DNA of 56,504 nucleotides, counting the filler, from Somniosus microcephalus (lineage: Eukaryota): assembly GCA_052327205.1 (NCBI GenBank). It is 3 parts of 3 records of this genome, joined end to end, with 100 filler letters (N's around TTAATTAATTAA, not from the genome) between each part and the next. Parts side by side here need not be neighbours in the genome. Positions count along the whole stretch, not along the records: positions 11,165 to 35,433 come from CM126211.1; 2 more parts are not named here. One strand, given 5' to 3'. Shown piece by piece: positions 8,241 to 56,504 of this stretch. A model generated the notes under the pieces. It was given only the letters and a program-made list of their open reading frames with translations, did not search any database and had not been told where the DNA came from. The position numbers and the translations under genes were made by a program. Positions within the stretch are counted from its first letter, which is position 1, and each line of letters starts with the position of its first letter.

Positions 8241-10621
8241 ATGGAGAAGGCCAGGGAGAGAGCGCAGCGCTTCAGCGACGGTGACCTGAGGGTGCTGGTT
8301 GGCGGAGTGGAGCGCAGGCGCCATGTTTTGTACCCAGAAGGTGGCAAGAGGCCGCTGCCCAGCGCCTACCGGAAAGCCTGGAGGGAGGTGGCCAACAGGG
8401 TCTCTTCCAACAGCGTGGTTGCCAGGACTGCTGTGCAATGCCGGAAGAAGTTCAACGACCTCACTCGGGTTGTCAGGGTGAGTACCCTTTCCAGTGTCCT
8501 CCTCATCCTTGCATGTGCACCTCACATTATGGGCAAAGGGACCTGAAAGCCCTAATGGCCAGCCCTCATCCAGCAGCTATGGGACTGGCATGAAAATCAC
8601 TTGCACATTCAGCACTTTACACACTGTACAAGCTATTCGACCATGGGAGGCAGTGCAGACAAGATCAGGGCTACACACTGTCCAAGCTATTCAACCATGG
8701 GAGGCAGTGCTGACAAGATCAGGGCTACACACTGTCCAAGCTATTCGACCATGGGAGGCAGTGCAGACAAGATCAGGGCTACACACTGTCCAAGCTATTC
8801 GACCATGGGAGGCAGTGCAGACAAGATCAGGGCTACACACTGTCCAAGCTATTCGACCATGGGAGGCAGTGCACACAAGATCAGGGCTACACACTGTCCA
8901 AGCTATTCGACCATGGGAGGCAGTGCAGACAAGATCAGGGCTACACACTGTCCAAGCTATTCGACCATGGGAGGCAGTGCAGACAAGATCAGGGCTACAC
9001 ACTGTCCAAGCTATTCGACCATGGGAGGCAGTGCAGACAAGATCAGGGCTACACACTGTACAAGCTATTCGCCCATGGGAGGCAGTGCAGACAAGATCAG
9101 GGCTACACACTGTACAAGCTATTCGACCATGGGAGGCAGTGCAGACAAGATCAGGGCTACACACTGTACTTAGAGGCCGTCCTTTCTCTTTCAGGCCAAG
9201 GTTGCGCATAACCGGCGCAACCAAACTGAGACCGGGGAGGCCGTCCTGACATCAAAGAGCTCTCCGACCTCGACCAGCGTGTGGAGCGCATTATGGGAGG
9301 CCGGCTGATTGGCCCCGTCGCCACTGGAAATGCCGACCCTGTTCTAGGCACCAATGGTAAGGGCATGACCTTTTGGACCTCTCTCGTTCCACTTGCGCAT
9401 CAGATCAGCATCCTTTGCCACTGTCCGACCAATGCGGTGAATGGCACCACTCATGCCTCCCTCGCTGCCGCCCTGTCCTCATTCTAAAGCTACTCTTGTG
9501 CCTTCCTGCTTTCAGATGGTGAATCGCCAGGTGAGGAGGCGGGCCCTCAAGCTGCCACTGTCAGCCCTTCGGAAGACGAGGAGGAGGAAGAGGAAGCCGG
9601 CCCATCAGTGCCACCCTCAGCCGCGCCAGCCCATGCCGATGTAGGGGACACGTCTTCCCTGGAGGGGAGCCGGGGGGAAGGGTCGGAGGAGAGTGAAGCT
9701 CCGGGGCCCAGCGGCCTGCAGCAACACGGAAGGGGTGGGGAAGCTCGGCGGACTTCTCCCCAGAGGGTGAGTGCGGCCTCCAGTCCTGCGACGGTCAGCG
9801 CAGAGGAGGTGCGCCTCCTAGAGGAAATGGCCGTCCAGGCTGAGCGCAGGCACACTGAGCTCATGGCTGCAGTGGCACGGATGCCTGACTCCATAGAGTC
9901 ACTGGCAAGGAGTGTGCAGGAATTCGGGTCAGCACAGGCCAGGAGTCTGCAACAATTCAGTGCAGCACAGGCCAGGAGTCTGGAACAATTCAATGTAGCA
10001 CAGGCCAGGAGTGTGCAGGACATCAATGCAGCACAGGCCAGGAGTCTGCAGGACATCGCGGCAGCACAGGCCACGAGTCTGCAGGACTTCACGGCAGCAC
10101 AGTCGGCTTCTAGCCAAGTGCTCAGTCGTGCCGTCCATTCACTGGCTGGTGTATTGCAGACACAGACCAGGGCCACACGGGCACTAACTGCTGCCACCCT
10201 CGCTGGATCAGCCAGGCCTCGCCAGGGCACTCGCCGCGCAGCAGCAGCCCAGCAATCTGTCCTTCATGCTGCACTGCTGGCCCGTGCGAGTGCCAATGTC
10301 TCAGGCGACCAGCGAGCACCTGCGAGCTGCCAGGTTGCCACCATTCCTGCAGCCGACACTGCCACTCCGCCATTGCAGCTGCCACGAGCTGCTGGACACA
10401 CTGCTGCCGCCCAGCCAGAGTTGGAGCATTCAGCAGCTGGCCCCTCCAAGGCCAGAGCTGGTGCAGGCCGACCCCCAAGGGCATCTGCCGTCTCGCCATC
10501 TGCCCCTCAGCAGCCTTCCCCCAGCCTTACTGCAGCCACTGGGCTCCCATTGAGGAGCAGCAGGGTGGGCAGGGGCCAGGCAAGGATGCGCAAGGCATCG
10601 CCCTCACAGGGCAAAAAGTAG
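8241..10621 (+). CDS. Harbinger-associated Myb/SANT-like DNA-binding protein; exons 8241-8477, 9195-9356, 9516-10621; one -1 frameshift near 9234-9237
   Basis: RAQRFSDGDLRVLV..WREVANRV..RTAVQCRKKFNDL trihelix motif; canonical GTGAGT, tttcag, GTAAG and ttcag sites with compatible phases; one added G restores AHNRRNQTETGGGRPDIKELSDL. Confidence 0.8.
8618..9168. repeat. 54-bp minisatellite, 10 copies, in intron 1 of the Myb gene
   Basis: Unit acactgtccaagctattcgaccatgggaggcagtgcagacaagatcagggctac; 8621 to 9161 is 10 x 54. Confidence 0.95.
9902..10103 (+). repeat. 33-bp coding repeat (11 aa, AQARSLQxFxA), about 6 copies
   Basis: gcacag recurs at 9932, 9965, 9998, 10031, 10064 and 10097. Confidence 0.9.
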
Positions 10622-11064: not shown

Positions 11065-11164
11065 NNNNNNNNNNNNNNNNNNNNNNNNNNNNNNNNNNNN
11101 NNNNNNNNTTAATTAATTAANNNNNNNNNNNNNNNNNNNNNNNNNNNNNNNNNNNNNNNNNNNN
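11065..11164. other. Artificial contig linker
   Basis: 44 N + TTAATTAATTAA (stops in all six frames) + 44 N. Confidence 0.9.
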
Positions 11165-28655: not shown

Positions 28656-28757
28656 TCAGTATGAAACTGGAAGGTCCGCAGTCAGAAAGCGAAGTTTCTT
28701 TTCCATACTGCTGCACTTCTCGACTACAAAATCGTACAAATTAAAGAATGATGGTTC

Positions 28758-29639
28758 TGTGTGCGTGGGGGTGTGTGGGGGGGTGCGNNNNNNNNNNNNN
28801 NNNNNNNNNNNNNNNNNNNNNNNNNNNNNNNNNNNNNNNNNNNNNNNNNNNNNNNNNNNNNNNNNNNNNNNNNNNNNNNNNNNNNNNNNNNNNNNNNNNN
28901 NNNNNNNNNNNNNNNNNNNNNNNNNNNNNNNNNNNNNNNNNNNNNNNNNNNNNNNNNNNNNNNNNNNNNNNNNNNNNNNNNNNNNNNNNNNNNNNNNNNN
29001 NNNNNNNNNNNNNNNNNNNNNNNNNNNNNNNNNNNNNNNNNNNNNNNNNNNNNNNNNNNNNNNNNNNNNNNNNNNNNNNNNNNNNNNNNNNNNNNNNNNN
29101 NNNNNNNNNNNNNNNNNNNNNNNNNNNNNNNNNNNNNNNNNNNNNNNNNNNNNNNNNNNNNNNNNNNNNNNNNNNNNNNNNNNNNNNNNNNNNNNNNNNN
29201 NNNNNNNNNNNNNNNNNNNNNNNNNNNNNNNNNNNNNNNNNNNNNNNNNNNNNNNNNNNNNNNNNNNNNNNNNNNNNNNNNNNNNNNNNNNNNNNNNNNN
29301 NNNNNNNNNNNNNNNNNNNNNNNNNNNNNNNNNNNNNNNNNNNNNNNNNNNNNNNNNNNNNNNNNNNNNNNNNNNNNNNNNNNNNNNNNNNNNNNGGGGT
29401 GGGGGGGTGTGTGTGTGTGTGGGGGGGTGGGGGGGGGGTGTGTGTGTGTGTGGGGGGGTGGGGGGGGTGTGTGTGGGGGGGTGGGGGGGTGTGTGTGTGC
29501 GTGGGGGTGTGTGTGGGGGGGTGGGGGGGTCCGTGTGTGTGGGTGTGTGTGTGGGGGTGTGTGGGGGGGTGGGGGTGTGTGTGTGTGTGTGTGTGTGTGG
29601 GGGGGTGGGGGGGGGGGTGTGGGGGGGGGGGTGTGTGTG
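28758..29639. repeat. G/GT-rich low-complexity tract with N run
   Basis: Direct; N at 28788-29396. Confidence 0.9.
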
Positions 29640-31442
29640 AGAGAAAAACCAGAAACACTTTTTGCTGACTGTTACAACAATGGGACAAAAAGTAACCTCA
29701 TTTTCTACTCAGATCAGCCAGTGGCTTGGATCACAGCAATAAAATCACACTATACCAATGTTAAGCTAGAAAATACCGCAAATGGGTCCATAATGAAAAT
29801 TAACACACCAGGAGACAGTTCAACTACGACGGTCAACGCGTACAATACCGGGACAATATTAGTGCAAGGCAACCTCGACAAATTTGCAACGGCCTTCAGG
29901 ACACTGAAAAAATTAACTAAGGGGGGAAGGAACAGCCCCAGAGTGGCCCGCACTCCCCCCAACATTGACAACTTACCAGGAGAAAATCTGCCTGGTCAGG
30001 AGGTGAACGAGCCACACAGTTCAAACCAGACACTAACCCCGGGGAACCACAGCCACACGATACAACTGACAAACCCCAGCATAACTACCAGGGAGGAAGC
30101 CACACATAGTCCCCCTACCATTCCCAGCTCACCAAGAGAAGAGCAGCATAGCCAGGAAGTGAGTGAGCCCTCCAGGGCCGACCAGCCGAGCCAGGAAGTG
30201 AGTGAGCCTACCAGGGCCGACCAGACACATACCCCGGGATCACACAGCCAGATACAACCAAAAGATAAATTTAATCAATTAGAGATAGAGATGGTTAAAC
30301 TTAGAGAGGACTTCCTCAAAATGAATGACAATCAAAATCAGGAGAGGGAGAGACACAAGAGAGAGCTGAAGCTACTTGAGAACCAGGTGAATCTACTTAG
30401 GAATCAGGTGAAAGAGCTGCAGGAAAAAGAAGAGAGCCATAGAGGAGAGAAAACACCATTAGACCAGCAACCAGAGGCTAGAGATAAGACAAGACAGAGC
30501 CGGACGGAACGGCTGCACTCCCACACGGAACAAAAGCAACAGACACACAATACAAGGGGTGCCACACAGACCGACCAGCATACTGATTCGCAATCTTCCC
30601 CCACCACCGTGGAACCACAAGCGGGCCGCTCACAAGAGGTACGCACACACCAGACACCCCAGCCCAGCACACACACTATGAGTCCAAGCGAAAGCCACCA
30701 GACAGTAAACACAAACAAGGCTGACGTCGTAATACTCATCGACTCAAATGGGAAATTTCTATGGGAGAAAAAGCTATTCCCTAGAAGTAAAGTAGAAAAG
30801 ATCTGGTGCCCAACAACAAACAGAGCCATGGGATGGCTGACCAAAGCCAGATTAGGCTCCCCCCAACACATAATAATACACACGGGCACAAATGACCTAA
30901 AGACCCAACAGAAAGAAGTAGCAACATCGCTCAGAGCAATGATTAGGAAAGCAAGCAGTACATTTCCAAACACTAGAATCACTGTTTCCACAATATTGCC
31001 GAGAACAGACTTCAACAACAACACAATTCATGAGATAAATGCCAGCATAGCAAGAGACTGCGAATCAAACCACAACGTACACCTGGCCCAACACCCCACC
31101 CTCGATGAGGAATGTCTTTACGACCACGTCCACATCCAAAGGCAAAGAATATCGATCCTTGCTAAAGCCCTGAAGGACGTCGCTTTTAACCGGGTCCATA
31201 CCCAGACTCCAAGAGGACCCCCCCCCGACCACCAGAGATCAGCGGGGTACATATCAGGAACACTACAAGGACCACCAACACACCAACCGAGACCAGAGAG
31301 GATCCCCATGCAAAACAACAATGTCAGACCTGCACCACTCCTGTCCCACAGGGGAATAGGACTGCTCCCAGCCAGACAGAGGGAGAGATGCACAGGACGT
31401 ACGCAATACCTCAGACAGAAACAATCCATTAAGAGACAATAA
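29640..31442 (+). CDS. LINE ORF1p, N-terminally truncated, with coiled coil and SGNH/GDSL esterase domain
   Basis: Open for about 600 codons; blocks VVILIDSNG, IIIHTGTND, LYDHVH; heptad-like LEIEMVKLRE..LENQVNLLRNQVKEL. Confidence 0.8.
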   Translation, partial: REKPETLFADCYNNGTKSNLIFYSDQPVAWITAIKSHYTNVKLENTANGSIMKINTPGDSSTTTVNAYNTGTILVQGNLDKFATAFRTLKKLTKGGRNSPRVARTPPNIDNLPGENLPGQEVNEPHSSNQTLTPGNHSHTIQLTNPSITTREEATHSPPTIPSSPREEQHSQEVSEPSRADQPSQEVSEPTRADQTHTPGSHSQIQPKDKFNQLEIEMVKLREDFLKMNDNQNQERERHKRELKLLENQVNLLRNQVKELQEKEESHRGEKTPLDQQPEARDKTRQSRTERLHSHTEQKQQTHNTRGATQTDQHTDSQSSPTTVEPQAGRSQEVRTHQTPQPSTHTMSPSESHQTVNTNKADVVILIDSNGKFLWEKKLFPRSKVEKIWCPTTNRAMGWLTKARLGSPQHIIIHTGTNDLKTQQKEVATSLRAMIRKASSTFPNTRITVSTILPRTDFNNNTIHEINASIARDCESNHNVHLAQHPTLDEECLYDHVHIQRQRISILAKALKDVAFNRVHTQTPRGPPPDHQRSAGYISGTLQGPPTHQPRPERIPMQNNNVRPAPLLSHRGIGLLPARQRERCTGRTQYLRQKQSIKRQ

Positions 31443-31621
31443 GCAGATGTGCAGCAGCATCTACTTCCGCCTTATGGATCAAGGACTAATTAATAGAAAG
31501 AACTGTAACCAAATTGTATTAACTTTTGTAGACAACTGATGTGATCTTTTTTTTCCCCACACTTAGACACGACAAACACGTACCACTCTTTAACCTATCA
31601 TAGTAAAAGATCAAACTTAAC

Positions 31622-34600
31622 ATGAAATCCTTATATATTTCGACCTGGAATATCCAAGGTCTACGCTCTTCACTGCGAGAAGTGAAAAGTAGGACCCCAG
31701 AGTTCATAGATGAAACTAAAGACCTAGATATTATCATTTTACAGGAAACTTGGTATAAAGGAAAAGGACACACTGGCTGTCCCCAAGGGTACACTGAGCT
31801 GGTGGTGCCTCCAATAAATTACCAAGTGTAACCAAGGCAGAGACTCCGGAGGCATACTGATCTGGTTTAAAACAGAACTTAAGAATTACATCAAATTTAT
31901 AAAAAAGGGCGAAACCATATGTGGCTCAAACTTGAGAGGGAGATTATCTCAAACACCCAAGATGTTTACATTTGCGCACTTTATATCCCTCCAATCGATT
32001 CCCCGTACTTTAAAGAGGACACCTTCTCCAACATGGAGGGGGAAATTATCCAATACCAGGCCCAGGGAACGTGTTGATCTGTGGGGACCTCAATTCAAGA
32101 ACGGGCGAAGAACCAGACTTCACCAATAATCAGGGAAACAATTATGTTTTCGGGAATAACACTTTGACATCCCTTCCCTTCCATACAGGCATAACTGCGA
32201 CAAGCAGTCAAATACCAACGGAAAACAGCTACTACAGCTCTGTCGAAACCTGGGTCTGTACATTGTCAATGGTAGGTTCATAGGAGACCTCCTAGGAAGA
32301 TCGACCTATTGCTCACCTCTTGGCTGCAGCACAGTAGACTATATTATATGATTACAGACTTAGACCCATCCTCTTTCAGAGCATTCACAGTCAAACCACA
32401 AACAACACTGTCAGATCACAGTCAAATTACTATGTTCCTCAAAAAGACAGAAACAAACAACATAGAAACACAACCCAGTAAACTGTACAACACCAAAAAA
32501 TCGTACAGATGGGCCAAAAACGACACGGAAAAATACCAGAAAACAATTAGCAATGCATCAACTCAAGCTCTCTTAGACACCTTTCTGGATAACATATACA
32601 CTCACAATAAAGAAGGCGTAAACCGGGCAGTTAGTAAACTAAACAATATTTTTGATAATTTGGCAACAAATGCAAACTTGAAAGCTCGCAAGAACAAACC
32701 CAAAACAAAAAACTATGAAAAATGGTTTGACCGAGATTGCCATAACATGAGGAAAAAACTTAGAAAAATATCAAACCAAAAACACAGACATCCAGAAAAC
32801 GAGGAACTACGCCTTACTTATTGTCAGACACTAACACAATACAGAAACACACTCAGAACCAAAAAAGAGCAATATATTAAGAATACACTCAGCTCCATGG
32901 AGGAATCCATTGATTCCAATTGTTTCTGGGAAAACTTGAAAACACTACACAAAAAACAACACGACGATTTGGCCATTCAAAATGGGGACACATGGGTAAA
33001 CCACTTTGAAAAATTATACCAGAAAAGAACACTAAGACCAGAGCAACACCAAATATGCAAAAAACTGGAAAAGCTAGAAATGGCCATAAAAGATAACCAA
33101 AACCCGCTGGACGCCATAATAACAGAAAAAGAACTTCTTGAAAAACTCGAGGACCTGCGACCAGGAAAAGCCTGCGGGACAGATGGCATACTAAACGAGA
33201 TGATTAAACACACAGACAACAAAATGAAACTGGCTATCCTAAAACTCTTCAACTTGGTTCTGAGTGTCGGTTATTTCCCTGATATCTGGAACAAAGGACT
33301 CATAACGCCCATATACAAAAGTGGGGACAAAATCGACCCAAACAACTATCGAGGCATCTGTGTAAACAGTAACCTGGGGAAGGTATTCTGTAGCATCATA
33401 AACAAAAGACTTATAAACTTCCTTGAGGAGCACAATGTCTTGAGTAAAAGCCAAATTGGATTCCTGCCAAACTATAGAACATCCGATCATATCTTCACCC
33501 TACAGACCCTAATTGACAAACACGTTCACAATAACAAAAGCAAAATCTACGCATGCTTTGTAGATTTCCAGAAGGCTTTCGACTCCATCTGGCATGACGG
33601 TTTATTCCTGAAACTTATCGAAAGTGGGGTAGGAGGGAAAACATATGATGTAATTAAATCAATGTATACAAACAACAAATGTGCAGTTAAAATTGGAGAC
33701 AAACAAACAAAATACTTCCCACAGGGGCGGGGGGTGACGCAGGGCTCGCCAATCTCACCGACACTCTTTAATATTTACATAAATGGATTGGCAAAACTAC
33801 TTGAACAATCTACAGCACCCGGCCTCACCCTATATGAATCCAAGGTTAAATTCCTCCTCTATGCAGACGACCTGGTTCTGCTGTCACCTACTAAAGAGGG
33901 GCTACAGCAAAACCTGGACCTGCTGGAGTCGTACTGCCAGACTTGGGCCCTGACAATAAATCCCCAAAAAACCAAAGTCCTTGTGTTCCAGCAAAGATCC
34001 AAACATCAGGGACCCAAAATAAATTTCACAGTAGGAACAACCAAAATTGAACAAACCACTAACTACACATACTTGGGCTTAAAAATCAGTTCTACGGGAA
34101 ACTTCAAACTGGCTGTGAATGAACTGAAAGAGAAAGCAAGAAGGGCTTTCTATGCCATCAAAAAATCAATCCAAATAGAAATCCCAATTAGCATTTGGCT
34201 CAAAATTTTCAAATCAGTAATTGAACCAATTGCACTCTATGGCAGTGAGGTATGGGGACCGCTAACTCAACAAGAATTTGCAAAATGGGACAAACACCCA
34301 ATTGAGATCCTACATGCAGAATTCTGTAAAAGTATCCTCCGGACTCAAAGGAAAACAGTAAACAATGCATGCAGGGCGGAACTAGGCCAATATCCATTAA
34401 TAATCACTATCCAAAAAAGAGCCACCAAATTTTGGAATCACCTACAAATGAGCAATCCCCAATGCTATCACTACGACGCCCTGAAATGCCAAGAGCTGAC
34501 CATAAAGAAGAATACCCTCAGTCAATTAGTCCTGGGACTCAGTGAAGTAACTACTAACAATACTAACAATAACCAGCCCCAGGACAGTGACAGGGTAACA

Positions 34601-35092
34601 CAAAGAATTCGACCCAACACAATCGTCGCTAAGCAAAAGGAAAAATATCTGACATATTGGGCAGAAACAACAAAAACCCAAAGCAAACTCAATTGCTACT
34701 TGGCCCTAAACAGACAATACAACATAGCTGATTACCTGACCATGGTAAAGGATAACAAACTGAGAAGAACCTTGACAAGGTACAGACTTAGCGAACATAG
34801 CCTAGCGATCGAAAAAGGCAGACACAGGCAGACCAGGCTGCCAAGAGAGGACAGGATATGCTCTCACTGCAGTCAGGGAGTGGTGGAGACAGAGATGCAC
34901 TTCCTCACAGCTTGTGGAAAATATCAGGGCATCAGGGAGAATTTCTACCAAAAATTCTCACAAATATGCCCTGATTTCAGAAATCTGAATGACAACCAAA
35001 AACTCCCATTCCTACTGGGAGAGGAGAGAAGCTGTATAACACTGGCGGCGCACTATGTTACAGCTTGCCATGAACAGAGGGACAACCAGTAA
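31622..35092 (+). CDS. LINE ORF2p: APE endonuclease (frameshifted, 31622 to about 32340), then intact RT and C-terminal zinc knuckle
   Basis: STWNIQG, ILQETW, ICGDLNSR, SDH; NYRGIC, FVDFQKAFD, QGSPISPTLFN, YADD; CSHC..HFLTAC; 927-aa uninterrupted ORF 32309-35092. Confidence 0.9.
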
Positions 35093-35433
35093 ACTAAGAA
35101 AAAAATATATATAGACAATGCGAATGTATGTTTATACACTCAGGGATATACCTGTTTATACACTGTATGAATAGAACTGCGTTTATGTGCTAAACCATAA
35201 ATGTATTTTGATGCTTTGGCAACATAAGATGTGACTTATCATGCCAATAAAGCGATTTAANNNNNNNNNNNNNNNNNNNNNNNNNNNNNNNNNNNNNNNN
35301 NNNNNNNNNNNNNNNNNNNNNNNNNNNNNNNNNNNNNNNNNNNNNNNNNNNNNNNNNNNNNNNNNNNNNNNNNNNNNNNNNNNNNNNNNNNNNNNNNNNN
35401 NNNNNNNNGGGGGTGTGTGTGTGGGGGGGTGGG

Positions 35434-35533
35434 NNNNNNNNNNNNNNNNNNNNNNNNNNNNNNNNNNNNNNNNNNNNTTAATTAATTAANNNNNNNNNNN
35501 NNNNNNNNNNNNNNNNNNNNNNNNNNNNNNNNN
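35434..35533. other. Artificial contig linker
   Basis: 44 N + TTAATTAATTAA + 44 N. Confidence 0.9.
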
Positions 35534-47959: not shown

Positions 47960-48925
47960 CGCTGATAGGCCTCACTGTTATTCTTACTGCAAAATCCTTC
48001 ATGTCTCCTGGATAACCACCTGTGCAGGAAGTGCCTCCAGTTGCTCAAACTTGAGCTCAGGGAGGGTTTCTGAGCTTGAGGAGTGGCTGGAGTCACTGCA
48101 GGACATACAGCAGGCTGATCATTTCCTGGAGCGACGTTCCAGGAGGTGGTCAACCCGCAGCTACAGAGAGTGCAAGAGAATAGTAAGTGGGTGGCCATCT
48201 GGCAGGGTAGGAATCCTCTGGGAGTGTGGCACTGTCAAACCGGTTTTCAGCACTGAATACCGGTGAGGGTGATGACACCTCGGGGGAGTGCAGTTTAGAG
48301 CACATCCATGGCACAGTGGGGAAAATGACTGTACGGGGGGGGGGCACAGCAAAGTGCAGAAATGCAGTAGTCAAAGGGAATTCGATAGTCATGGGGATAG
48401 ACAGGCGTTTCTGCAACGAGAGTCCCACATGGTGTATTGCCTCCCTGGTGCTAGGGTAAAGGACATCACCGAGAGGGTGCAGAACATTGAGGAGGGAACG
48501 GGAACAGCCGGTAGTCGTGGTCCACGTGGGAATCAATGACATAGGAAGGAAAAGAGTTGCGGTCCTGCAGTCAGAGTTTCAGGAGTTTGGGAGTAAATTA
48601 AACAGCAAGGCTTCAAAAAGTAGTAATCTCTGGATTACTCCAGTGCCATGCGCTAGTGAGTATAGGAATAGTAAGATAAGACAGGCTAACGCATGGCTGG
48701 AGAAATGGTGCAGGAGGACTTCAGATTCCTGGGGCATTGGGACCAGTTCTGGGGCAGGGGCAATCTGTTCCAAGATGGATGAATTGCACATGAACAGAGC
48801 TAGGGAAAATATCCTCACGGGAAGGTAAACTAGTACGGTGGGGGAGGGTTTAAACTAATTTAGCATAGGGTTGGGCACCAGGATAAAACATTAGAGAGGA
48901 GAAACAATGTGCACAGAGGAATGCA
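47960..48925 (+). mobile_element. CR1 ORF1 remnant (Cys motif, coiled coil, SGNH esterase)
   Basis: RVSELEEWLESL, VVKGNSIV, CLPGARVKDI, VVVHVGINDIG. Confidence 0.75.
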
Positions 48926-52541: not shown

Positions 52542-54093
52542 TGTATCCCAGGCTGTTAAGCGAAGCAAAAGAGGAAATAGCAGAGGCCCTGACCATCATT
52601 TTGCAATCCTCTCTGGCTTCAGGTGTGGTGCCAGAGGACTGGAGGACTACTAATGTGGTACCCTTGTTTAAAAAGGGAGAAAAGGATAGACCGAATAATT
52701 ACAGGCCAGTCAGCCTAACCTCGGTGGTGGAAAAATTATTGGAAAGAATTCTGAAGGACAGGATAAATCTTCATTTAGAAAGACACGGATTAATCAAGGA
52801 TAGTCAGCACGGATTTGTTAAGGGAAGGTCATGTCTGACAAACTTGATTGAATTTTTTGAGGAGGTAACAAGGAGGGTAGATGAGGGTAGTGCGTTTGAT
52901 GTAGTGTATATGGACTTTAGCAAGGCTTTTGATAAAGGTTCCACATGGCAGACTGGTCATGAAGTTAAAAGCCCATGGGATCCAAGGCAAAGTGTCAAGT
53001 TGGATTCAAAACTGGCTCGGAGACAGGAAGCAGAGGGTAATGGTTGATGGGTGTTTTTGTGACTGGAAGGCTGTTTCCAGTGGGGTTCCGCAGGGCTCAG
53101 TACTAGGTCCCTTGCTTTTTGTGGTATATATCAACGATCTTGACTTGAATATAGGGAGTATGATTAAGAAGTTTGTAGATGATACTAAAATCGGCTGTGT
53201 GGTTGGTACTGAAGAAGGAAGCTGTAGACTGCAGGAAGATATGAATAAATTGGTCAGGTGGGCAGAACAGTGGCAAATGGAATTCAATCCGGAGAAGTGT
53301 GAGGTAATGCATTTGGGGAAGGTTAACAAGGAAAGGGAACACACATTAAATGGTAGGACACTGAGTAGTGTAGAGGAACAAAGGGACCTTGGAGTGCATG
53401 TCCACAGATCCCTGAAGGTAGCAGGCCAAGTAGATAAGGTGGTTAAGAAGGCATATGGAATGCTTGCCTTTATTAGCCATTGCACAGAATACAAAAGCAG
53501 GGGGGTTATGCTTCAACTGTATAAAACACTAGTTAGGCCTCAGCTAGAGTACTGCGTGCAGTTCTGGTCACCACGTTACAGGAAATATGTGATTGCACTA
53601 GAGAGGGTACAGAGGAGATTTACAAGGATGTTGCCAGGAGTAGAGAATCTTAGCTATGAAGAAAGACTGGATAGGCTGGGTCTGTTTCCCTTGGAACAGA
53701 GGAGGCTGAGGGGAGACCTTATTGAGGTGTATAAAATTATGAGGTGCATAGATAAAGTGGATAGAAAGGACCCATTTCCCTTCGCAGAGGAGTCAAAAAC
53801 CAGGGGGCACAGATTTAAAGTAATTGGTGGAAGGTTTAGAGGGGATTTGAGGGGAAATTTCTTCACCCAGAGGGTTGTGGGGGTCTGGAACTCGCTGCCT
53901 GAAAGGGTGGTAGAGGCAGGAACCCTAACCACATTTAAAAAGTACTTGGGCGTGCACTTGGGATGCTGTAACCTGCAGGGCTACGGACCAAGAGCTGGGA
54001 AGTGGGATTAGGCTGGATAGCTCTTTGTTGGCCGGCGCAGAGATGATGGGCCGAAATGGCCTCCTTCCGTGCAGTAACTTTCTAATGATTCTA
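52260..54093 (+). mobile_element. CR1 ORF2 RT to 3' end, frameshift near 52937
   Basis: NYRPVSLTS, DFSKAFDK, GVPQGSVLGP, FVDDTK; (GT)n at 52456-52538. Confidence 0.9.
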
Positions 54094-54386: not shown

Positions 54387-54419
<33 letters not shown>

Positions 54420-54812
54420 GGGGGGAGAGGGGCCTGGGGATCGAGAGAGAGACTGGGGGGAGAAGAGAGCGACTGGGGGGAAGAGAAAGAGAGAGAGACT
54501 GGGGGGAAGAAAAAGAGAGAGACTGGGGGGGGGGGGAAGAGAAAGAGAGAGAGACTGGGGGGAAGAGAAAGAGAGACTGGGGGGGAGAGAGAGAGAGACG
54601 GGGGAGAGAGAGAGAGAGACTGGGGGGAGAGAGAGAGACTGGNNNNNNNNNNNNNNNNNNNNNNNNNNNNNNNNNNNNNNNNNNNNNNNNNNNNNNNNNN
54701 NNNNNNNNNNNNNNNNNNNNNNNNNNNNNNNNNNNNNNNNNNNNNNNNNNNNNNNNNNNNNNNNNNNNNNNNNNNNNAGAGACTGGGGGGGAGAGAGAGA
54801 GAGAGAGAGAGA
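54271..54812 (-). mobile_element. Helitron-type non-autonomous element 3' end with GA-rich minisatellite
   Basis: 54271-54329 is the inverted match of about 35551-35610 (hairpin + CTAG|T); followed by (TA)n, (GTCT)n and gagactggggggaagagaaagaga units. Confidence 0.65.
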
Positions 54813-55463
54813 GAACTAGGCCAATATCCATTAATAATCACTATCCAAAAAAGAGCCACCAAATTTTGGAATCACCTACAAATGAGCAACCCCAATGCTA
54901 TCATTACGACGCCCTGAAATGCCAAGAGCTGACCATAAAGAAGAATACCCTCAGTCAACTAGTCCTGGGACTCAGTGAAGTAAATACTAACAATACCCAA
55001 CCCCAGGACAGTGACAGGGTAACACAAAGAATTCGACCCAACACAATCGGCGCTAAGCAAAAGGAAAATTATCTGACATATTGGGCAGAAACAACAAAAA
55101 CCCAAAGCAAACTCAATTGCTACCTGGCCCTAAACAGACAATACAACATAGCTGATTACCTGACCATGGTAAAGGATAACAAACTGAGAAGAACCTTGAC
55201 AAGGTACAGACTTAGCGAACATAGCCTAGCGATCGAAAAAGGCAGACACAGGCAGACCAGGCTGCCAAGAGAAGACAGGATATGCTCTCACTGCAGTCAG
55301 GGAGTAGTGGAGACAGAGATGCACTTCCTCACAGCCTGTGGAAAATATCAGGGCATCAGGGAGAATTTCTACCAAAAATTCTCACAAATATGCCCTGAAT
55401 TCCGAAATCTGAATGACAACCAAAAACTCCCATACCTACTGGGGGAGGAGAGAAGCTGTGTAA
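54813..55463 (+). mobile_element. 5'-truncated second copy of the RTEX-like LINE
   Basis: Near-identical to about 34379-35038 with scattered substitutions and one short indel; 3' end lost in Ns. Confidence 0.9.
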
Positions 55464-55963: not shown

Positions 55964-56504
55964 CTCCACCTCCTCCCACTCCACAACCCACCACCACCAC
56001 CCACACCACTCCTCCACCACCACCTCCCACCCCACCTCCTCCACCACCACCACCACCCACACCACACCACCACCACCTCCACCCTCACCACAACCACCTC
56101 CCCTCCTCCCACTCCACACCTCCACCACCTCCCACCTCCACTCCTCCTCCTCCACCACCTCCCTCACCACACCTCCACCACCTCCACCACTCCACTTCCA
56201 CCTCCACCTCCACCACCCTCTCCACATCCACCACCACCTCCACCACCCTCTCCACCTCCTCCTCCTCCACCCTCACCTCTCCTCCACCACCACCTCCCAC
56301 TCCTCACCTCCTCCACCTCCTCCCACACCACTCCTCCTCCTCCACCTCCTCCCACCTCCTCTCCCTCTCCTCCCCTCCACTCCTCCACCTCCTCCTCTCC
56401 TCTCCTCCACCTCCACCTCCTCCCTCTCCTCTCCACACCTCCTCCTCCTCCCACTCCTCATCCACCTCCTCCTCCCACTCCACCTCCACCTCTCCTCTCC
56501 ACCT
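55964..56504. repeat. (CCA/CCT)n low-complexity tract
   Basis: Direct. Confidence 0.9.

Follow-up and report, generated by a model that had tools for sequence, protein, structure and literature searches.

A dead, 5'-truncated two-ORF LINE of Somniosus microcephalus, likely of the RTEX clade, and its probable soft preference for GA tracts

Kibi and Koshi are LINEs of the Tx1 clade, whilst Waldo and Mino belong to the R1 clade. RTEX elements have a 3' end made of short tandem repeats, and RTE elements usually do without a long esterase ORF1. Waldo, Mino, Kibi, Koshi and Dong are the microsatellite-targeting LINEs listed in the available text of PMC3812793, where such APE LINEs are recorded for a few lineages only and no RTEX element is named. 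Kibi (TC) and Koshi (TTC) of zebrafish and pufferfish and the insect elements Waldo and Mino are APE-type LINEs associated with microsatellites and described as sequence-specific (PMC3812793). Among RTEX elements, RTEX-1/2/3_NV, RTEX_BF and RTEX-1_SK are alike in their long ORF1, made up of an N-terminal region, a coiled coil and an SGNH esterase starting past residue 350, and in their APE-RT ORF2 (PMC3905857 Table S1, as available to us). In RTE-clade elements such as BovB, the microsatellite-like (CTGAA)n tail is thought to pair with the target, although the 3' microhomology given in the portion of PMC6007223 at hand is 1-2 bases only, with no microsatellite homing.

The window analysed here is a stretch of 56,504 nucleotides, filler included, taken from three records of the S. 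microcephalus assembly GCA_052327205.1. It carries an APE-type LINE with two ORFs on the plus strand (copy 1, 29640-35260; Table 1) and a fragment of a second copy, for which a sequence-only reading had proposed a young RTEX-like family apparently targeting GA/GT microsatellites. Our analysis favours, with moderate confidence, a dead, 5'-truncated, high-copy two-ORF LINE, likely RTEX, that likely inserted through target-primed reverse transcription, softly favouring GA-rich tracts. It resembles RTEX elements in the layout given above and in its nearest non-vertebrate relatives, which are coral proteins and mollusc/annelid clusters, but differs in that its lineage is vertebrate, with a (TTGAA)n tail and a GA preference seen in relatives. 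With Kibi it would share the GA/TC duplex, in fish; unlike Kibi, Koshi, Waldo and Mino, its lineage has only a partial preference, together with an esterase ORF1 (PMC3812793). The element may work like a loosely targeted Kibi, by analogy only. The tail unit of BovB is nearly the same as TTGAA (PMC6007223).

Table 1. Features of the element, its two copies and their flanks, in positions of the window
Feature	Position	Strand	Remarks
GT/G-rich simple repeat upstream of copy 1	28757..29639	+	Contains N gap 28788-29395; ends GTGTGTG and runs into GAGAGA at 29639-29644
5' truncation junction, copy 1	29639..29644	+	GAGAGA is repeat leftward and ORF1 codons R-E rightward; probable microhomology
ORF1	29640..31442	+	Open; start, about 25-70 N-terminal residues and 5' UTR missing
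Folded N-terminal domain of ORF1	29643..29930	+	Alpha/beta, conserved; model pLDDT 91.8
Likely coiled coil of ORF1	30264..30444	+	From the translation; weak coiled-coil Pfam matches in homologues
SGNH esterase domain of ORF1	30720..31200	+	Motifs DSNG 30741, HTGTND 30879, DHVH 31122
ORF2	31622..35092	+	APE endonuclease, RT (YADD 33860), C-terminal CxxC...H...C CCHC-like motif 34859-34915
Conserved 3' stem-loop GCTTTGGCAA...CATGCCAATAAAGC	35213..35253	+	Holds AATAAA at 35246-35251
N gap covering tail and 3' junction, GT/G repeat 35409-35433, artificial scaffold join	35261..35533	.	Sequence
GA-rich minisatellite and (GA)n upstream of copy 2	54388..54812	+	Contains N gap 54643-54777
Copy 2, 5'-truncated ORF2 fragment	54813..55463	+	1-nt frameshift near its start; N gap cuts 3' side

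In the truncated ORF1 the esterase motifs fall at residues 367, 413 and 494. The domain matched Lipase_GDSL_2 in Pfam below the cut-off (E 1.9e-5), and its best PDB match was the esterase of ZfL2-1 ORF1 (4c1b, E 0.0098). The first 100 residues of ORF1 were matched by 54 of 86 homologues. Structural comparison of the model of this N-terminal domain returned weak likenesses to the TBP-like N-domain of RNase HIII, the RnlA N-domain and KA1 domains (best Z 7.8), and DUF3378 scored below cut-off (E 0.004); there was no Foldseek match at E<=0.001 and no structural match with Z >=8, and hence no clear fold match. Esterase ORF1 proteins are said in the available part of PMC3905857 to be without structured RNA-binding domains, and no report of a TBP-like domain in ORF1 was found in our literature search. 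Profile matches of ORF2 comprised RVT_1 (E 3e-40) and Exo_endo_phos (E 2e-4), with the APE part broken between 31806 and 32345 by small indels not shared by many contigs of the family, which differ from the window there. Pfam searches with the ORF2 pieces of the window and of two relatives (P0001, P0025) returned Exo_endo_phos and RVT_1 only, with no RNase H domain. Such a domain, suggested by UniRef 'ribonuclease H' names on homologues, was rejected as these names lack Pfam backing.

ORF1 thus has a likely coiled coil and, after it, an SGNH esterase that begins past about residue 350, and ORF2 combines APE and RT without RNase H, as in RTEX elements. The esterase starts at residues 354-550 in the RTEX rows (one partial row aside) and at 68-252 in the CR1-clade rows of PMC3905857 Table S1, as far as that table was available; the ORF1 layout fits the former and not the latter, making the element RTEX-like by architecture. 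Consistent with this, its RT is only 22-27 % identical to the CR1/L2-type RTs of the window, versus 70-76 % to its own group, and a long branch of the RT tree separates it from the CR1/L2-type sequences, so that the grouping with L2/CR1 which would have spoken against the sequence-only reading was not seen. We take the CR1/L2 labels of these outgroup RTs partly from known motifs and partly from protein matches. The RT trees also placed the vertebrate group beside coral and other relatives, and human L1 ORF2p (84 bits) and R2 (96 bits) were both distant in PDB scores. Membership of the RTEX clade itself is likely, as judged from architecture and not from comparison with labelled RTEX sequences. 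Proto2 has been confused with RTE-X according to the accessible text of PMC10294476, and the element may belong to Proto2 instead.

Copy 1 reads GTGTGTG and then AGAGAAAAACC at its left edge, preceded by 245 nt of GT/G repeat that continues on the far side of the upstream N gap; beyond its right edge come 148 N, then GT/G repeat for 25 nt and lastly an artificial N44-TTAATTAATTAA-N44 join. Spacers of this kind, at 11065-11164 and 35434-35533, make adjacency uncertain across both. Homologues run on upstream of the left junction (...KLLR/EKPES), and because full-length homologues have about 25-70 extra N-terminal residues, position 29640 is a truncation inside ORF1 and was ruled out as the true start of the element. 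Copy 1 is dead, since it is both 5'-truncated within ORF1 and frameshifted. Copy 2 begins straight out of pure (GA)n with a GA overlap of 2 nt and is 96.2 % identical to 34379-35039 over 661 nt (dS 0.08 and dN 0.011 over 187 codons). Both copies are oriented with their sense strand on the G-rich strand, and each is bounded by N gaps, which hide the 3' tail and the true 3' flank. ORF2 has an A content of 39 %, compared with 28-30 % in three neighbouring LINE ORFs. The junctions, orientation, near-identity and distinct base composition described by the sequence-only reading were all borne out, albeit with a right-hand repeat of only 25 nt before an artificial join. Its description of the element as young holds for the family, as the copies are 96 % alike and most family contigs at least 95 % alike, but not for copy 1, which is dead. 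The C-rich, low-complexity CCA/CCT stretch at 55964-56504, after a 500-N gap, resembles poor-quality sequence rather than the true 3' flank of copy 2.

Few positions in the window have a repeat-like upstream flank: at a cut-off of at least 14 of 20 upstream nt, with thresholds chosen after the junctions had been viewed, 0.22 % of non-N positions were preceded by GA-like sequence and 0.83 % by GA- or GT-like sequence. Copy 2 scored 20/20 for GA, whereas copy 1 scored only 14/20 for GT, barely at the threshold. The element's own family contributes just these two junctions, both 5', and target sites were examined in related families (about 47-64 % ORF2 identity) in metagenome contigs from a handful of assemblies.

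The 3' end of these relatives is (TTGAA)n, preceded by a conserved stem-loop. Its inner 5-bp stem was 87.5 % paired across 24 sequences, with 34 cells changed on both sides; none of 500 shuffles reached this covariation and slid controls gave 25-59 %. As the outer stem was chosen by the search pattern, only the inner stem, which the pattern did not fix, counts as evidence. The last 66 nt of the window element folded no better on their own than shuffles (z -1.5). The stem-loop is likely to represent an RT recognition signal. Approximately 30 loci with the same motif (including L002, L003, L006, L012, L024, L038, L071 and L076) have (CTA)n or (CATT)n tails instead and, by eye, lack a GA flank; they likely represent families of this lineage in another host.

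Scanning the metagenome contigs for the 3' motif gave 103 matches in 102 loci, classed by regular expression as 56 (TTGAA)-type, 21 CTA-type, 10 CATT-type and 16 other tails, with a few misfiled. A GA repeat (at least 14 of 20 nt) followed the tail at 23 of 51 non-duplicate, evaluable TTGAA-type ends, against a background of 1.5 %. A hand-curated set (n=56) left out seven same-locus duplicates and one likely chance match and took in six loci found by eye and two contaminant contigs from bacterial records. Amongst its 55 evaluable non-redundant relatives, 22 had (GA)>=4 within 70 nt of the 3' motif and none had TC (background 146/9446 windows), a run being present in 10 of 14 ORF-linked and 12 of 41 unlinked copies. 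The remaining 33 had no such run. At the 5' side, 4 of 43 boundaries (L050, L059, L087, L098) abutted (GA)>=4 and none abutted TC (background 1.2 %, p 0.0017), most of these boundaries being estimated alignment ends and not proven junctions; a version of the test that needed no boundary and counted a GA run anywhere in the 1.5 kb upstream gave a negative result (8 GA vs 6 TC among 57 loci). One relative, L059, mirrors the pattern in the window, being truncated in ORF1 with (GA)14 directly upstream and GA-rich sequence downstream. Flanking of most copies on both sides by the target microsatellite was thus not seen in the relatives. By eye, (GT)n occurred in them only beside a GA run, and strict GT targeting was rejected. 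The search for target-site duplications in relatives yielded no clean duplication outside repeats, only repeat or chance matches, and assemblies break at microsatellites, which may bias these counts in either direction. Of the microsatellite targeting first proposed, then, a soft GA preference survives in the relatives, whilst specificity and a role for GT do not.

The same scan found no match in viral contigs and 13 stretches in bacterial genomes; of six that were viewed, three resemble fish contaminant contigs and three resemble chance matches. Fish-type LINE sequences, likely on contaminant contigs, lie within records of a Brevinema MAG (L108; 905-codon ORF2), Xanthobacter tagetidis (L109) and Nocardioides malaquae (L114).

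By analogy with a model put forward for RTE-group elements, insertion could proceed as follows. ORF2p would bind the 3' stem-loop of its own RNA and the APE domain would nick the pyrimidine (TC) strand, after which the freed 3' end would pair with an RNA tail ending (UUGAA)nUUGA(GA); GA and GA-like purine tracts (GAAA, GAGT, GATA) would prime best owing to this pairing. Reverse transcription would mostly stop early, the 5' end would be joined via short GA microhomology, and slippage at priming may extend the 3' GA run. Tail-target pairing has been proposed for RTE-group elements in the available text of PMC6007223. The (GT)n tracts are likely incidental neighbours of GA in compound microsatellites, although the fact that copy 1 abuts mostly GT/G sequence weighs against a GA preference.

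Alternatively, the GA run may be the element's own tail, arising where a master copy was transcribed into downstream (GA)n or where the RT slipped, such that GA microsatellites were made at near-random sites. GA is indeed far commoner at 3' than at 5' boundaries; several copies have a GA-rich 3' flank but a non-GA 5' side (L004, L035, L052, L055, L085), L004 sits inside the sequence of another LINE with GA at its 3' end only, and moths have been reported to gain microsatellites through RTE elements (PMC2887409, in the portion available). However, both 5' junctions in the window and four relatives have GA runs upstream, which is impossible for a tail and needs a target that was already present. 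Near-identical copies also bear different purine repeats: despite 99.8-100 % identity, L026, L027 and L043 continue into (GAAA)4, (GA)6 and GATAGAC, respectively, and L004 and L029, 96 % alike, into (GA)n and (GAGT)n, so a fixed templated tail is insufficient. We consider a tail origin unlikely as the whole explanation, but a GA preference and a self-made GA run may both contribute.

A family as strictly microsatellite-specific as Kibi, with an endonuclease reading (GA/TC)n and with non-GA relatives that are old or of other subfamilies, would accord with both window junctions lying at GA-containing repeats and with the frequency of 3' GA in ORF-linked relatives. Against this, a GA run is missing from the 3' end of L043, despite its GA-flanked near-duplicates, and from that of L013, which shares 95 % identity with L014, and relatives overall stand at 40 %, making strict specificity quite improbable. 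Least credible of all is an assembly or retention effect, whereby contigs were set beside low-quality repeat ends or insertions were tolerated only in repeat-rich DNA: both copies do lie between N gaps, one flank ends in an artificial join and the GT/G and CCT/CCA stretches resemble low-quality sequence, but the junction overlaps of 2 to about 6 nt are probably too short for an assembler join, the same repeat type occurs on both sides of the upstream gaps, and the strict strand bias in relatives (22 GA, 0 TC) is unexpected from retention.

At least half of the sampled element words were present in 10 of 22 listed runs, which carry three organism labels; five runs with small word shares (X12-X16) were left aside. 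Contigs matching the element numbered 19,866, 14,337 and 3,626 in runs X1, X2 and X5, respectively, and were mostly at least 95 % alike. Summed depth, which is not copy number, climbed from 5' to 3' in X1 from about 97,000 to 1.6 million, and the rise was about 15-fold in both X1 and X2, as expected of truncating target-primed reverse transcription. The family is high-copy in three run sets, and this depth profile is that of an abundant 5'-truncating LINE. Run X11, under a fourth organism label, held only 15 contigs at a depth of about 2-16, several near-identical to the element, and these may be trace DNA of its host.

Resemblance to teleost elements had raised possible horizontal transfer. 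This resemblance is real (70-76 % in the RT), and named ORF2 relatives among the best 120 matches were teleosts (up to 66 %), two frogs, a coral and one shark, Somniosus. The last, the S. microcephalus reverse transcriptase WPH61294/WPH61295, belongs to the same lineage (54 % identity over ORF2) but to a separate sub-lineage. The RT tree puts the window element into a polytomy with teleost and other lineages (nearest 76 %), whilst Somniosus lies behind starred branches with Astyanax and salmonid rows in a tree of 44 of the 96 rows of the larger one. An AU test rejected uniting the window element with Somniosus and its sister P0027 in one clade (p 1.3e-5), a group picked after the tree was viewed. 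Over a comparable region of 370 residues, the element shares 66-67 % identity with elements of Sparus, Cyprinus and coho, exceeding the 48-53 % between a neighbouring CR1 and CR1 of bony vertebrates; that CR1 is 63-66 % identical to carpet sharks and 52-56 % to rays, in line with a host that is likely a shark. Fourfold sites were unsaturated against four of five loci (41-55 % identity, chance 27-29 %).

The transfer itself was not borne out. The nearest DNA compared was 70-74 % identical with dS of 1.18-1.62 or saturated, closer proteins (P0031, 76 % in the RT) being compared as protein only. These values lie outside the limits for transfer given in the accessible part of PMC7070016 (Ks <0.5 and below the 0.5 % quantile of host-gene Ks, with at least 75 % DNA identity). 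The same paper also describes purifying selection acting on retrotransposons that were inherited vertically. Old paralogy also fits, because single teleost genera occur in several sub-lineages, and we rate an ancient transfer at somewhat below even. Doubtful, by comparison, is a fuller scenario in which a fish-wide RTEX lineage evolved GA/TC homing independently of Kibi via (TTGAA)nGA tail pairing, made at least two crossings from bony fish to shark (the window family and the Somniosus one) with massive amplification, and carries a TBP-like nucleic-acid-binding domain in ORF1. No report of RTE-X transfer in sharks was found in our literature search; if demonstrated, such transfer would give a retrotransposon example in a record that ray-finned fishes dominate.

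Were a partial preference for GA confirmed in an RTEX-like lineage, it would represent a further independent origin of microsatellite targeting and an intermediate between random and site-specific insertion, and would account for flanks shared by GA microsatellite markers of fish. Its thousands of copies per genome would be material for asking which of the two, RNA tail or endonuclease, determines the target. As the evidence stands, this is a specialist result on transposable elements. The literature search found no target preference, GA included, given for RTEX or RTE-X in the available portions of PMC5753468, PMC11203168, PMC10294476, PMC13708176 and PMC4120745; Repbase Reports, most subscription papers and the original descriptions of Kibi and RTEX lay outside it, and an earlier description of GA preference in RTEX is quite possible.

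Other features of the window include a second esterase-type ORF1 fragment at 48460-48828 (Lipase_GDSL_2, E 1e-4), likely from a CR1-type LINE. The shark-like CR1 at 52905-54011 has as top matches P0287 and P0288, which carry the labels Proteus mirabilis and Klebsiella pneumoniae, sit on 1.6-1.7-kb contigs and are likely mislabelled host DNA. A Myb/SANT-like domain (8241-8546; PF13873, E 6.5e-12) is followed by a long ORF with 33-bp repeats (9488-10621), with a 54-bp tandem array between them, an arrangement (8241-10621) that we take to resemble a Harbinger accessory gene.
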